A model generated the notes under the pieces. That model made no database searches. It was not told where the DNA came from and saw nothing but the letters and a program-made list of their open reading frames with translations. Below are positions 31,499 to 36,155 of a stretch of DNA of 64,000 bases, piece by piece; positions within the stretch are counted from its first letter, which is position 1, and the number at the start of each line of letters is the position of its first letter. A program made the translations under genes and the position numbers. Source of the stretch: Candidatus Parcubacteria bacterium (lineage in GTDB: Bacteria; Patescibacteriota; Patescibacteriia; Patescibacteriales; UBA12075); assembly GCA_963814275.1 (NCBI GenBank), contig CAWFCE010000001.1, forward strand, positions 259,307 to 323,306. The letters run 5' to 3'.

Positions 31499-33358
31499 AT
31501 GCAACCCTCCGAAGAGATCAAGCAAAAATTGGATATAGTGGACGTGATCCGCGAATACATCCCCCTCAAAGCGGCGGGGATGAATTTTCGCGCGATCTGC
31601 CCCTTTCACCGGGAGAAAAGCCCGTCTTTCATGGTCAGTCCCGATAAGCAGATCTGGCATTGTTTCGGCTGCAGCAAGGGCGGCGACATCTTCAGCTTCG
31701 TCCAGGAGATCGAAGGGGTCGATTTTGTCGAAGCCCTGCGCATATTGGCGCCCAAGGCGGGGGTTGTATTGACGCGCCAGGACCCCAAGCTCCAGAGCCG
31801 GCGCAACCGCGTGCTTGATGTCCTGGAATTGGCCCGGAAATATTATCACCGGACATTGATGGACGCGCCCGCGGCCAAGTCCGCGCGCGAGTATCTCGCG
31901 CGCCGGGGACTCAAAGAGGATACGATCGAGCTGTGGCAGATCGGCTATAGCCCCGACTCCTGGGATCTGACCGGCAACTTCCTGCGCGGCAAAGGTTTCA
32001 ATGACCAGGAGCTGTTCCTGGCCGGCATGACAGCCAAATCCGACACCAGCTCGCGGTATTATGACCGTTTCCGCGGACGGATCATGTTCCCGATCAATGA
32101 CGTTAACGGCAATACCGCCGCGTTTTCCGCCCGAGTCAGTCCGGAAAAGGAGGCAACGGAAAAAATGGGCAAATACATAAATTCGCCGCAGACGATCGTA
32201 TACGACAAAAGCAAGATACTGTTCGGTCTGGATAAGGCGAAACTCCAGATAAAACAGCAGGATCGGGCGATAATCGTCGAGGGGCAGATGGATGTGATAA
32301 CCGCCCATCAGGCCGGCTTTGCCAACGTGATCGCAAGTTCGGGTACGGCCTTGACCGCCGACCAGATCCAGATACTTAAGCGCTATAGCCAGAACATTGC
32401 CTTGTCTTTCGATATGGATGCCGCCGGCGCCATGGCGGCCGACCGTGGAATCCGCGAGGCGATGCGGGCGGAAATGAGCATCAGCGTTATCGAGGTGCCA
32501 AGCGGCAAGGATCCGGACGAGTGTATCCGTGAGAATCCGGCTGGCTGGCGCATGGCTGTGGATAAGGCTAAACCGATGATGCAGTATTATTTCGACCGGG
32601 TCTTTTCGTCCCTGGATACCGAGCGCGTCGATGACCGCCGCCAGGCAGCCAAGGAACTACTGCCGATAATCGTACGGCTGGGGAACCGGATCGAGCAGGA
32701 CTTTTGGCTGAAAACCCTGAGCCAGCAAATTGACGTACAGGAAACTTTGCTGAGAGAAGCTATCAGCCAAGCCGCATCCAAGGAAAAACCGGCACCGGAA
32801 GCCGCAGAACAGAATGAAAAAGCTTCCGCCCCCAAAAGCCGTGAAGAAAAAATGAGCGAATTGCTTTTGGCCCTGGTTTTCAAATTTCCCGAATTGTTCG
32901 AATATATACTGCAAAATATCCAAATTGAGCATATTCAGGGGGATGTCAGCCAGGCCCTTTACAGGAATTTATTATTTTATTATAATAAAATCAACAGTAA
33001 AAATAACGACGAACCGTCCGGTTTGCCGGTTTTGAATTACCAAACCTTTAAACAGTGGCTAAAAGACGCTATTCCCACGCAAAATGGGGCAAAAACCAAC
33101 GACAGCCAGTTAAAAACGTTAGATCGACTGGTTTTTTTAGCTGAGAAAGAATATTCGGAAATTGAGCTAAATTCAGCTAAATTGGAAGTTGCCCGAATGG
33201 TAGGCGAATTGAAAAAAAATCGGTTGGCAAGGCGTATGAGAGAGATTGAGCGCCAGGTTGCCGCCATCGAACACCAGGGGAACAAGGATGATAGTCTGCC
33301 CCTAATGGAGGAGCTTAAGTATCTGTCCGAGGAAATAAGGGGATTGTCCCAAGATTAA
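31499..33358 (+). CDS. dnaG: DNA primase
   Basis: Zinc ribbon CPFHREKSPSFMVSPDKQIWHCFGCSKGGD, a primase core, and TOPRIM (IIVEGQMDVI). Adjacent to rpoD as in the classical operon. Confidence 0.95.
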   Translation: MQPSEEIKQKLDIVDVIREYIPLKAAGMNFRAICPFHREKSPSFMVSPDKQIWHCFGCSKGGDIFSFVQEIEGVDFVEALRILAPKAGVVLTRQDPKLQSRRNRVLDVLELARKYYHRTLMDAPAAKSAREYLARRGLKEDTIELWQIGYSPDSWDLTGNFLRGKGFNDQELFLAGMTAKSDTSSRYYDRFRGRIMFPINDVNGNTAAFSARVSPEKEATEKMGKYINSPQTIVYDKSKILFGLDKAKLQIKQQDRAIIVEGQMDVITAHQAGFANVIASSGTALTADQIQILKRYSQNIALSFDMDAAGAMAADRGIREAMRAEMSISVIEVPSGKDPDECIRENPAGWRMAVDKAKPMMQYYFDRVFSSLDTERVDDRRQAAKELLPIIVRLGNRIEQDFWLKTLSQQIDVQETLLREAISQAASKEKPAPEAAEQNEKASAPKSREEKMSELLLALVFKFPELFEYILQNIQIEHIQGDVSQALYRNLLFYYNKINSKNNDEPSGLPVLNYQTFKQWLKDAIPTQNGAKTNDSQLKTLDRLVFLAEKEYSEIELNSAKLEVARMVGELKKNRLARRMREIERQVAAIEHQGNKDDSLPLMEELKYLSEEIRGLSQD

Positions 33359-33492: not shown

Positions 33493-34761
33493 ATGCCTGC
33501 GAAAAAAATAACCAAAAAAGCGGCACCCAGGAAGAAGCCGGCCAAGAAACCGGTAACCAAGAAGGCGACAGCGAAGAAGAAGCCAATTGCCAAAAATACG
33601 ACAGCGAAGAAGAAGCCAATTGCCAAGAAGACACCGGCACGGAAAGCGGAGCCGATAGAGCCGCGGGAAATCGTCCATCCGACCGAGAGCCAGATCAAGA
33701 ATTTGCTCGTCAAGGGCCGGTCGCGCGGTTTCGTTACCGAAACCGAGCTTTTATATATATTCCCGGAAGTCGAGGAGTATGTTTTCGAGTACGAATTATT
33801 CCTGGAGGACCTGCAGAAAAACGCTATCCAGATCATCGAAGATACCGGCCGGATACTTGACCTGGAGGAAAGGAAAGACAAGAACGAAACCGTCGTCAAT
33901 ATCCTTAAGGGCGACCTGACCGACCTGTCGAAGCTGTCTTCCGATTCGATCCAGATGTACCTGAAGGAGATCGGTAAAGTACCGCTGCTCAATTCCCTGG
34001 AGGAGGTCGAGCTGGCCAAACGCAAGGAAAAGGGCGATAAGGAAGCGGAACGGAAGCTGATCGAAGCCAATCTTCGGCTGGTTGTCTCAATCGCCAAAAA
34101 GTTCACCGGCGCCAAAGGCCTGTCCCTGCTGGACCTGATCCAGGAAGGCAATATCGGACTGTTCCGGGCGGTGGAAAAATTCGAATACCGCAAAGGCTAT
34201 AAATTCTCGACCTATGCCACCTGGTGGATCCGCCAGGCGATCACCCGCGCCCTGGCCGACCAGTCGCGCACGATCCGCATTCCGGTCCATATGGTGGAAA
34301 CGATCAACAAGTTCCAGCAGATCCAGCGCCAGCTGATCCAGGACCTGGGGCGCGAACCGCTGCCGGAGGAGATTTCGGCGGAAATGGGGGAGGAGATCGA
34401 CAAAGTGCGCCACATCATCAAAATTTCCCAGGATACGATATCCCTCGAAACGACCGTGGGCGAGGATGAGGAAGATTCGACGCTCGAGGATTTCATCGAG
34501 GACGTGAAGAACGTGACGCCGGACCGCTCGGCCGCCCTGCAGCTGCTGAAAGATTATGTCAAGGAAGTGATCACCCAATTGAGCCCGCGCGAGCAGAAGA
34601 TCCTGGAGATGCGCTTCGGCCTGGAGGACGGTGTCGCCCATACGCTCGAGGAAGTGGGCCGCGAGTTCGACGTGACCCGCGAACGCATCCGCCAGATAGA
34701 AGCCAAGGCCCTGGAGAAGATCCAGAAGCACGAAGGCATCCAAAAGCTGAGGGATTACTAA
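33493..34761 (+). CDS. rpoD: Primary RNA polymerase sigma factor (sigma-70)
   Basis: Region 2 ([18 protein letters not shown]) and region 4 ([24 protein letters not shown]). The Lys/Ala/Pro-rich N-terminus is encoded by a 33-bp direct repeat. Confidence 0.95.
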
Positions 34762-34852: not shown

Positions 34853-35203
34853 TTAAGAAATTGGAACAGGAAGTTTCTGATTGTATTGTTTGCTTTTTCT
34901 CTTATAGTATAAGTCGGCGGCATTTGAAAGGATAAATTTTTTATCCTCCAGGTTGAATTCGGAAAATTCGGGGAATTTAAAACGGATATATCGACTAATC
35001 AGTCGAGTAGCTGCAGCCAGGTAATAATTTTCTTTACCATTGTCGACGAGGAACAAGCAAGGTTTTCTTCTGAGTAATTCGATAATAAACATTATTTTCT
35101 TTTCCGGAATATTCTGGACAAGCATTGCATTATGAAAGTCGATCAGCTGATCTTTTAAGTGGTCAATATATTCTTCCGGCCTATGGTTTTTCAAATGAAC
35201 CAC
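34853..35203 (-). CDS. Hypothetical protein
   Basis: 116-aa ORF, AT-rich, with AAGGAGG immediately upstream. The precise start (GTG or TTG) is uncertain. Confidence 0.4.
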   Translation of the reverse strand: MVHLKNHRPEEYIDHLKDQLIDFHNAMLVQNIPEKKIMFIIELLRRKPCLFLVDNGKENYYLAAATRLISRYIRFKFPEFSEFNLEDKKFILSNAADLYYKRKSKQYNQKLPVPIS

Positions 35204-35507
35204 CTCCTTTTTTTATTTGTTTGTTATTATTATTTAATATTATTTTATCAAATATCAAATAATAAGTCACGTTATATATTTTTCATTAAGTATTTTATAT
35301 TATACAATTCCTTTATATTCAATTAATATTGTCTAATAATAGTAAATATTTGGTTAGCCACTCTTGACTAAAATTAATGTTTTATTTACAATATTAGTAC
35401 TGCCAATACGGCAGATTTGTTTTGTTAATCAAAGTTTCAGATTAATAATAAATCGAAAATCGAAAGTTATATTTCCCGGGTAGCGCAGCGGTAGCGCAGT
35501 TGGCTGT

Positions 35508-36069
35508 GAACACACGTTCCCTTTTATTTTTGCTATAATAAATTTATGGGCAAAGATAAAAGAAAATACGCCGATCGTGCAGAATATCTGAAACAAGCGG
35601 TCGCCAAACGCCGTAAGAAAATACGACAAATGGCAATCGAGTATAAAGGCAGCCGATGTGCGATATGCGGTTATAATAAATGCATTCAGGCTTTAGAATT
35701 CCATCATATCGATGGAAGAGGCAAAGATTTCGGCATTTCCGCTAAAGGTTATACCAGAAGCTGGAAAGAAGTAAAATCAGAAATCAATAAATGTATTTTA
35801 TTATGCGCAAATTGCCATCGCGAAGTGCACGAAAGCATAACGCAGCTTCCATGAGCGATCATGGTCGAATAACGAGGTGAATTGTCTGGAAGCCTAAGTT
35901 CCGATTTGTCGGAATAAGGTAATCAGCAGCCAAGTCCCGAGTAATCGGGAAAGGTTCAGAGACTATCCTGAAAAGGAGTAGGCCGTAAGCATCGGCCGAA
36001 GCGCCTCGCGCCCCGCACTTGCGGGGTGATGATATAGTCCACGCCTTAAGGAAACTTAAGGATTACGTG
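35508..36069 (+). ncRNA. Group I (IA-like) self-splicing intron in the tRNA-Asn anticodon loop
   Basis: Conserved core strings: GAATTGTCTGGAAG (P-like, 35879-35892), AATCAGCAGCCAAGTCC (Q region, 35921-35937), GTTCAGAGACTA (R, 35954-35965) and GATATAGTCC (S, 36031-36040). Candidate helices: P3 CGAGGTG/CGCCTCG, P6 CCCGA-GTAA-TCGGG, P7 GACTA/TAGTC, P7.1 TCCT-GAAA-AGGA, P7.2 GGCCG/CGGCC, P8 CCCCGC-ACTT-GCGGGG and P9 CCTTAAG-GAAA-CTTAAGG. The 5' splice site follows a U and the intron ends in G. Confidence 0.8.
35546..35854 (+). CDS. HNH homing endonuclease encoded inside the intron
   Basis: CAICGYNKC...LEFHHIDGRGKD...ILLCANCHREVHE is an HNH/zinc-finger motif. The ORF lies between the 5' splice site and the ribozyme core. 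Confidence 0.85.
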   Translation: MGKDKRKYADRAEYLKQAVAKRRKKIRQMAIEYKGSRCAICGYNKCIQALEFHHIDGRGKDFGISAKGYTRSWKEVKSEINKCILLCANCHREVHESITQLP

Positions 36070-36120
36070 TAACCAATTGGTCGTCGGTTCGAATCCGACC
36101 CCGGGAGCCAAATTAAATCA

Positions 36121-36155
36121 AAAAAACTTACCTAATTTTAGGGTAAGTTTTTTTG
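36121..36155 (+). terminator. Rho-independent terminator after the tRNA
   Basis: Hairpin acttaccctaa-ttt-tagggtaagt followed by ttttttt. Confidence 0.8.

Follow-up and report, generated by a model that had tools for sequence, protein, structure and literature searches.

We analysed a 64,000-nucleotide (nt) stretch of a Candidatus Parcubacteria bacterium contig (CAWFCE010000001.1), referred to here as the window, in whose positions all unassigned coordinates are given. The window most likely holds a functional tRNA-Asn(GUU) gene, in a bacterial chromosome, that is split by a group I intron of the subgroup IA type, and an open reading frame (ORF) for an HNH endonuclease lies within the intron. 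This intron is a further member of a class that is already known and experimentally validated, described by Nakagawa, Amikura, Omae and Suzuki (preprint July 2025, bioRxiv 10.1101/2025.07.03.662931; mSystems January 2026, PMC13011429). A preliminary description of the locus, drawn up from its letters, had judged an HNH-carrying, IA-like intron in tRNA-Asn to be unusual. That verdict fails because it leaned on an outdated list of bacterial tRNA introns (Leu, fMet, Ile and Arg; subgroup IC3). Williams 2020 (bioRxiv 10.1101/2020.01.27.920355) expanded the four classical classes to 21 cases, which according to Nakagawa et al. include one named 'Asn.4Ug'; the class itself has been described in Patescibacteria, and a close relative of the window intron has been shown to splice. 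Because the class had been published before, the finding serves chiefly as confirmation. The window provides a clean further example, and the additions that could interest specialists in mobile introns are the abundance of the HNH-bearing form, the non-Patescibacteria titles among its carriers, the overlap of coding and ribozyme sequence from the guide to P5, and the link to phage tRNA-Asn genes.

A tRNA-Asn gene split within its anticodon

The gene consists of two exons and the intervening element, all on the + strand:

35474..35507, +: 5' exon of tRNA-Asn(GUU), comprising the acceptor 5' strand, D arm, anticodon stem 5' strand and C32 U33 G34 U35 (ARAGORN, homologues)
35508..36069, +: group I intron, 562 nt, between tRNA positions 35 and 36 (RF00028, conserved ends, 75.5% identity to a self-splicing intron)
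36070..36110, +: 3' exon of tRNA-Asn, comprising U36, A37, A38, anticodon stem 3' strand, variable loop, T arm, acceptor 3' strand, G73 and CCA (ARAGORN, homologues)

Once the exons are joined, ARAGORN recognises a 75-nt tRNA-Asn(GTT) with an acceptor stem of 7 base pairs, U1-A72, G73 and an encoded CCA, just as the preliminary description had proposed. Its account of the intron ends also agrees with our analysis: the 562-nt insert begins directly after U35 and its last nucleotide is G. The insertion therefore falls between anticodon nucleotides 35 and 36, and the spliced anticodon loop is predicted to read CUGUUAA. The combination of U1-A72 and G73 is typical of bacterial tRNA-Asn. Run without intron awareness, ARAGORN reported zero tRNAs across the 64-kilobase window, and no second tRNA was found there by ARAGORN or with the Rfam library, whose sole match was Intron_gpI. 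Standard annotation overlooks this tRNA-Asn or labels it tRNA-Thr, which matters for completeness estimates and for the tRNA inventories of Patescibacteria genomes.

A full group I ribozyme between the exons

The covariance-model check that the preliminary description had called for gave a clear result: Rfam Intron_gpI (RF00028) matches 35775-36061 on the + strand with 96.3 bits against a gathering score of 50 (E 1.3e-23), over the full model, 1-253. Measured against dinucleotide shuffles, the fold of the last 240 intron nucleotides has a z-score of -5.5, and the minimum-free-energy structure of this segment includes P2, P3, P7.1, P7.2, P8 and P9. The Rfam score and the fold z-score together make the observation real and far beyond chance. 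The elements of the ribozyme are as follows:

35502..35508, +: P1 5' strand, GGCUGU-G, the hyphen marking the 5' splice site after U35507; pairs with 35841-35847
35841..35847, +: internal guide sequence CGCAGCU, the P1 3' strand, lying in ORF codons T-Q-L; GCAGC in 72 of 72 homologues examined
35849..35864, +: P2 hairpin CCAUGA GCGA UCAUGG, which holds the ORF stop codon (35852-35854); covariation
35873..35879, +: P3 5' strand CGAGGUG; pairs with 36002-36008
35884..35927, +: P4-P5-P5a domain, with P4 at 35886-35889/35923-35926, P5 at 35892-35895/35917-35920 and P5a at 35899-35904/35909-35914
35929..35955, +: P6 (GCC/GGU) and P6a (UCCCGA/UCGGGA) with a GUAA loop; P6a covaries at six of six pairs
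35961..35965, +: P7 5' strand GACUA; pairs with 36035-36039, within the Rfam core match
35966..35997, +: P7.1 (35966-35977, GAAA loop) and P7.2 (35981-35997), between P7 and P3'; both covary
36002..36008, +: P3 3' strand CGCCUCG (alignment of 58 sequences)
36009..36028, +: P8 hairpin CGCCCCGC ACUU GCGGGGUG; the outer five pairs covary, and the hairpin is in the minimum-free-energy fold
36035..36039, +: P7 3' strand UAGUC, after J8/7 AUGAUA (Rfam, alignment)
36044..36061, +: P9 hairpin CCUUAAG GAAA CUUAAGG; seven of seven pairs covary
36069, +: omega-G, the final intron nucleotide; G in 76 of 76 homologues

The core strings picked out in the preliminary description are all in place (AATCAGCAGCCAAGTCC at 35921-35937, GTTCAGAGACTA at 35954-35965 and GATATAGTCC at 36031-36040), and every helix that it named is kept, most of them with covariation, in 58 non-redundant homologues. 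Pairs were counted with our own script on a MAFFT alignment of 58 non-redundant 'mini-introns', in each of which the exon end and intron start are joined to the segment running from the guide sequence to omega-G, with helices defined on the window sequence. All six pairs of P2 covary, showing 3-6 pair types each and at most one non-pair. P3 has seven pairs, of which the three outer ones covary (for example CG 29 / UA 21). Covariation is strong in P4 and P5a, and P5 is partly conserved. P7 is invariant in 58 of 58 sequences, with one exception at its last pair, and is therefore uninformative for covariation.

P1 is constrained from the side of the host gene. The wobble U35507.G35842 and three neighbouring pairs are invariant, the core of the helix being unable to covary because the anticodon loop of tRNA-Asn is fixed, and the first intron pair does covary (GC 42, AU 8, GU 3, CG 1 and four non-pairs). 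In the ORF-less intron that has been spliced in vitro, P1 (GGCUGU/GCAGCC) closes on a 5-nt loop, which confirms the P1 assignment.

Hairpins P7.1 and P7.2 are both present between P7 and P3' and both covary, the first pair of P7.2 being split evenly between GC (23) and CG (23). Such hairpins between the P7 5' strand and the P3 3' strand are said to be the criterion for subgroup IA laid down by Michel and Westhof in 1990, and the IA-like label of the preliminary description therefore stands. Among the loci L031, L041, L035 and L065, some lack P7.1/P7.2 entirely (GAGACUUAUAGCGCC...) and others have a different element in this place, so the IA trait is not uniform in the family. L041 also carries a large insertion between P3 and P4.

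The splice sites define tRNA-Asn rather than tRNA-Thr

The splice sites of the preliminary description, which give tRNA-Asn, hold up, but the window sequence by itself allows a second solution: if both sites are moved 2 nt in the 5' direction, a U still precedes the intron and the intron still ends in G. The shifted sites would make the gene a tRNA-Thr(UGU) with its intron between positions 33 and 34 (GGCU-GUGAAC...UUACG-UGUAACC, hyphens marking the splice sites). Intron-aware ARAGORN gives this call, tRNA-Thr(tgt) i(33,562), to the window and to the majority of homologues. In addition, AUGGUC (35861-35866) could pair with GGCU so as to put the U.G wobble at U33. This last segment had been a candidate for the guide, favouring Thr. 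It was dropped when the alignment showed it to be the 3' strand of P2, covarying with the P2 5' strand, with the true guide GCAGC 20 nt upstream, within the ORF.

To compare loci, we searched GTDB (one genome per species) with an alignment of ORF homologues as the query, which gave at least 576 loci, the best 80 of which were kept. An interrupted tRNA surrounds the ORF in 77 of these 80, and 76 could be parsed. In all 76 the Asn sites fit, with CTGT at the end of exon 1, G as the last intron nucleotide and TAA at the start of exon 2. Intron ends such as CTTG, ACG, CCG, GCG and ATG are common among the homologues, and with these the Thr reading is left without an omega-G or without a valid loop. 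The guide GCAGC pairs with CUGU and places the wobble at U35, across the 5-nt loop in the case of the ORF-less homologue. A tRNA body with U1-A72 and G73 counts against Thr, and 16 uninterrupted genes are identical to the Asn product. Finally, sequencing of reverse transcription PCR products from a homologue revealed the 35/36 junction, and the same miscall by ARAGORN and tFind is documented there (PMC13011429). Judged by sequence comparison, the ambiguity is settled for Asn by the homologous loci, the position of the U.G pair in P1, the intron-less genes and the published resolution, and we regard a tRNA-Thr as scarcely credible.

An HNH ORF reads into the guide sequence and P2

The ORF and a candidate promoter in front of it lie in the loop of P1:

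35531..35539, +: extended -10 box TGcTATAAT, ending 6 nt before the ORF ATG; candidate internal promoter with putative function
35546..35854, +: HNH endonuclease ORF, 102 amino acids, in the P1 loop, its 3' end overlapping the guide and P2 (ORF list, homologues)

The preliminary description had a 102-residue HNH ORF lying between the 5' splice site and the ribozyme core. The ORF is there, but that simple placement does not hold, as its last codons are also the guide (35841-35847) and the 5' strand of P2. At 35836-35854 the end of the ORF doubles as structural RNA, codons T-Q-L holding the guide and the Pro codon and stop forming the P2 5' strand. In many homologues (L003, L007, L013, L014 and others) the reading frame crosses P2, J2/3, P3 and P4 and meets its stop codon only in P5; the resulting conserved tail, ...QLPQVIEVEKRGELLEA, is dictated by the RNA.

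The window ORF has more than 2612 homologues (protein clusters), and the best 120 listed are 71-83% identical to it. In an alignment of 31 diverse members, C38, C41, C87 and C90 (two CxxC pairs), H53, H54, H91 and H95 are invariant and N89 is nearly so; the window protein thus contains the first-strand His, the helix Asn and His and the two CxxC pairs of an HNH motif. A Pfam search of the ORF at E <= 0.001 gave no match. With the threshold relaxed to E <= 1, each of the 31 aligned members has Pfam HNH as its best-scoring family, with a best E of 2e-5, and several close homologues bear a precomputed PF01844 match. The AlphaFold2 model (mean predicted local distance difference test score, pLDDT, 79.3) has a long N-terminal helix followed by a strand-strand-helix unit that bears the conserved residues: two His lie in strand 50-54, and CANCH...H spans strand 83-87 and helix 88-95. 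A profile search of PDB sequences returned McrA as its sole match (E 0.022).

Expression of the protein may be independent of the tRNA. Of 54 distinct leaders, 26 have TGnTAnnnT at a distance of 6-9 nt upstream of the ATG, where shuffles lead one to expect 0.9 (maximum 4 in 500), and a Shine-Dalgarno-like string is absent from all 72 leaders. These patterns suggest an intron-internal promoter giving a leaderless mRNA that would start at or next to the AUG.

Intron-less alleles and distribution

In the window the tRNA gene follows glycosyltransferase genes, dnaG (31499-33358) and rpoD (33493-34761). The order rpoD then tRNA-Asn is kept in many related genomes (L084 and 40 other loci), with or without the intron, at spacings from 6 nt to 2 kilobases.

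Intron-less alleles with an intact target occur in related genomes. The 28 nt that span the spliced junction are found without any change in at least 120 metagenome contigs, and in 16 contigs an uninterrupted gene matches the joined exons at every one of the 75 nt. In 41 intron-less contigs rpoD is the gene immediately upstream and shares the strand of the tRNA gene, as it does in the window.

The HNH-bearing form was found in at least 576 GTDB species genomes and is far commoner than the four cases known from complete genomes (PMC13011429), where HNH (PF01844) genes are present in 4 of 15 tRNA-Asn introns and the other 11 are ORF-less. By record title, the closest loci belong to Parcubacteria, Falkowbacteria or the Patescibacteria group, and on the basis of these titles the host of the window intron is very probably a member of Patescibacteria.

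Carriers of the HNH intron also include records titled Elusimicrobia, Aerophobetes, Saccharicenans, Omnitrophota, Ignavibacteriota (a 1.23-megabase contig), Acidobacteriota and Blastocatellia; these are metagenome-assembled, and the labels are titles only. The tRNA bodies of the loci concerned (L039, L046, L049, L053, L056, L058, L059, L061, L063, L072 and L076) are unlike the Patescibacteria ones. About 12 of the 80 contigs stop within about 100 nt past the tRNA-Asn 3' exon (L003, L012, L015, L018, L024, L031, L035, L056, L072, L074, L077 and L079). Such breaks could reflect variation in intron presence within populations, or rearrangement at this place.

Free-standing relatives beside phage tRNA-Asn genes

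IMG/VR contains at least 559 relatives of the HNH protein, at 46-65% identity. When 20 of the best 80 IMG/VR loci were scanned with Rfam, a group I intron was found only in L202. The other relatives (L203-L281) are free-standing ORFs within phage tRNA arrays and preferentially adjoin an uninterrupted tRNA-Asn(GTT): in 54 dereplicated loci, Asn(GTT) makes up 32 of the 66 tRNAs immediately next to the gene but 3.8% of the remaining tRNAs (binomial p 3e-27, uncorrected for relatedness). Annotated phage genomes give 469 records that match the family. Bacillus phage Bastille (NC_018856.1 5857-6685, L283) has the order tRNA-Asn, HNH endonuclease, tRNA-Asn, and relatives are also found in Lak megaphages and in many Escherichia, Salmonella, Klebsiella and Vibrio phages. 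Some phage members adjoin another tRNA instead, as in Shigella phage Henu11. The free-standing gene of L228 (1689-2051) encodes an extra N-terminal Cys-rich segment (CKVHGE...RYRCVKC) that is absent from the intron-borne protein, and its 3' end overlaps the start of the tRNA-Asn by 10 nt.

Two loci have an arrangement that looks like an intermediate. In L057 (2495-3135) a free-standing HNH gene has rpoD on one side and, on the other, a tRNA-Asn interrupted by an ORF-less intron of 217 nt (54 bits, Rfam), and in L053 (2023-2791) such a gene follows a tRNA-Asn with an ORF-less 251-nt intron (74 bits, Rfam). Taken together, the arrangements look like stages by which a free-standing endonuclease that targets the intron insertion site comes to reside in the intron. 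An intron-invasion pathway is reportedly due to Bonocora and Shub in 2009. We put forward tentatively, giving it somewhat less than an even chance, that the HNH proteins are an endonuclease lineage of phage origin, dedicated to the tRNA-Asn gene and seen at three stages of one such pathway. The gene would at one stage be free-standing beside an uninterrupted tRNA-Asn in phage tRNA arrays (Bastille, Lak megaphages, IMG/VR contigs), at another free-standing beside a tRNA-Asn with an ORF-less intron (L053, L057), and at a third within the P1 loop of the intron, as in the window, where its C-terminal codons would have become the guide and P2-P5 and it would have acquired its own extended -10 promoter and a leaderless mRNA. 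On this view, a tRNA-Asn intron that already existed would have received its endonuclease from phages, which may in addition move the mobile unit from one phylum to another; if true, this would contradict the conclusion in the literature that these tRNA introns are seldom transferred horizontally. An HNH family tied to phage tRNA-Asn genes offers a testable way in which a tRNA intron could have gained its mobility.

The overlap of the ORF with the guide and P2, the conserved extended -10 box and the free-standing HNH genes beside phage tRNA-Asn go beyond the published description of the class. The main text of PMC13011429 has no mention of 'leaderless', 'free-standing' or 'guide sequence', uses 'promoter' only for the T7 splicing constructs and has 'phage' only in a reference title; the overlap, the internal promoter and the free-standing phage relatives appear to be undiscussed there.

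Splicing, homing and the alternatives

The pre-tRNA very probably self-splices by the standard two-step, guanosine-initiated pathway to give tRNA-Asn. In the transcribed pre-tRNA, C32-U35 and two stem nucleotides would pair with the guide CGCAGCU (35841-35847) to form P1, in which the wobble of U35 with G would mark the 5' splice site. Exogenous guanosine would attack after U35507, omega-G36069 would then enter the G site in P7, and ligation of the exons would produce the CUGUUAA loop. The HNH protein most likely acts as a homing endonuclease on intron-less tRNA-Asn genes. This is suggested because its catalytic residues are conserved, intact targets are abundant, the intron is polymorphic for presence at the rpoD-linked locus, and phage relatives point the same way. 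It would cut an intron-less tRNA-Asn near the insertion site, and repair would copy the intron in. Translation of the protein would probably be uncoupled from the pre-tRNA by the intron-internal extended -10 promoter.

Several observations speak against this account of the locus, or weaken it. The in vitro proof of splicing comes from a homologue 75.5% identical to the window copy (PMC13011429), and for the window copy itself we infer the reaction. Core pairs of P1 show no covariation, and its two outer pairs are mismatched in homologues with other anticodon stems, in 15 of 58 at one pair. The covariation counts are drawn from related sequences and a MAFFT alignment, with no tree-aware test. 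Inspection by eye made no P10 pairing apparent that would join the 3' exon to nucleotides on the 5' side of the guide. On the protein side, the window ORF scores 19.1 bits on Pfam HNH (PF01844), below the cut-off of 21.4 (E 0.0015), and a Foldseek search of the PDB with the model was non-significant; its best matches were the HNH proteins Cap5, T4 endonuclease VII and Cas5-HNH, at E 0.29-1.8 and a TM-score of about 0.4.

The subthreshold Pfam score bears in particular on whether the intron splices while its HNH protein is not, or is no longer, a tRNA-Asn homing endonuclease, being instead a decaying passenger, a maturase or some other nuclease. As 11 of the 15 published tRNA-Asn introns of the class have no ORF, the intron persists without one; and since the C-terminal residues of the protein are constrained by the RNA, part of its conservation is not due to protein function. 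That conservation nonetheless reaches far past the RNA-constrained tail, to catalytic and zinc-binding residues that are invariant in the 31 diverse members, and an intact ORF is present in more than 2600 protein clusters and 576 or more GTDB species genomes. A maturase is not required, since an ORF-less homologue self-splices without protein. Intact intron-less targets are common, also at the same rpoD-linked locus, and the specific linkage of free-standing relatives to phage tRNA-Asn is the pattern expected of an endonuclease that targets this gene. That the protein is not a homing endonuclease for this gene is improbable. That the locus does not work at all, either because an integration left two pieces of tRNA behind or because the intron has turned the gene into a dead pseudogene, with a working tRNA-Asn elsewhere, we consider highly implausible. 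The ends of many related contigs near the locus make rearrangement at tRNA-Asn conceivable. The tRNA halves, however, fit perfectly, being identical to the 16 uninterrupted genes and occupying the same site downstream of rpoD; the ribozyme between them is complete, with all core helices intact, and so is the ORF; the same split arrangement recurs in 76 loci from different species; and the tRNA-Asn tested for splicing in PMC13011429 was the sole copy.

Flanking signals and a neighbouring ORF

Signals that could serve the transcription of a pre-tRNA flank the split gene:

35364..35392, +: sigma-70-like promoter candidate for the pre-tRNA, TTGACT, 17-nt spacer, TACAAT (consensus scan 10/12; pattern match only)
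36126..36155, +: terminator-like hairpin (ACTTACC ... GGTAAGT) followed by seven T, read from the sequence; putative function

The promoter candidate lies about 82 nt upstream of the tRNA 5' end and would drive the pre-tRNA. Our promoter and terminator scan did not report the hairpin at 36126-36155, probably because its loop, of 9 nt as read, is longer than the 8-nt limit of the scan. Between rpoD and the promoter region of the tRNA, a 116-residue ORF with a GTG start and no Pfam match lies on the - strand at 34853-35203. The 1.2-kilobase Logan contig L001, which has an identical HNH ORF, also carries a 116-residue minus-strand gene (190-540) in the equivalent position upstream of that ORF.

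Comparison with known systems

The nearest counterparts of the window intron are those of PMC13011429. In 95 complete Patescibacteria genomes, that study found group I introns at 35/36 in 15 tRNA-Asn(GUU) and 3 tRNA-Asp(GUC) genes. Of 28 introns at 35/36 that it classified, 25 were assigned to IA by subgroup-specific covariance models. HNH-bearing IA introns at 35/36 were found only in Patescibacteria; among 333 bacterial tRNA introns, 81% were IC and only 12 were longer than 500 base pairs. Self-splicing at 35/36 was demonstrated in vitro, with sequencing of the ligated exons, and changing omega-G to C blocked exon ligation. ARAGORN and tFind often called such genes Thr(UGU) 33/34. From guide to omega-G, the window ribozyme is 75.5% identical to the GCA_016700035.1 intron, which was spliced in vitro, and 72.9% identical to that of GCA_016699245.1 (212-221 aligned positions). 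The window shares with the class the host tRNA, insertion point, U-1, omega-G, guide GCAGC and ARAGORN miscall, and its P7.1/P7.2 are consistent with the authors' IA assignment. Introns of GCA_016699425.1 and GCA_001029735.1 (Table S3 of that study) begin with ORFs homologous to that of the window, of the same HNH family. The spliced reference intron differs in being ORF-less, at 234 nt, and in having a different element where the window has P7.1/P7.2; nothing essential differs.

The classical introns, in tRNA-Leu(UAA) of cyanobacteria and plastids, tRNA-fMet, tRNA-Ile(CAU) of Azoarcus and tRNA-Arg(CCU), are likewise self-splicing, sit in the anticodon loop, end in omega-G and form P1 from anticodon-loop and stem nucleotides. 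Unlike the window intron, they interrupt other tRNAs, at 33/34, 34/35 or 36/37, belong to IC3 without P7.1/P7.2 and are nearly always ORF-less. The IA introns of phages (T4 td with I-TevI, Twort orf142, and the IA2 intron of the Pf-WMP3 DNA polymerase gene with the nicking HNH enzyme I-PfoP3I, PMC3428280) resemble the window intron in their IA core with the P7.1/P7.2 extension and in an endonuclease ORF that is looped out of a peripheral element and expressed separately from the host gene, as would be the case in the window. They lie in protein-coding genes, whereas the host in the window is a chromosomal tRNA gene and the ORF sits in the P1 loop and reads into the guide. T4 mobE, an HNH enzyme promoting trans-homing of the nrdB intron (PMC2790892), and T4 SegB, of the tRNA cluster (PMC2330249), are free-standing, in arrangements like those of the phage relatives and of L053 and L057; the candidate HNH endonuclease gene of the window differs from both in lying inside the intron.

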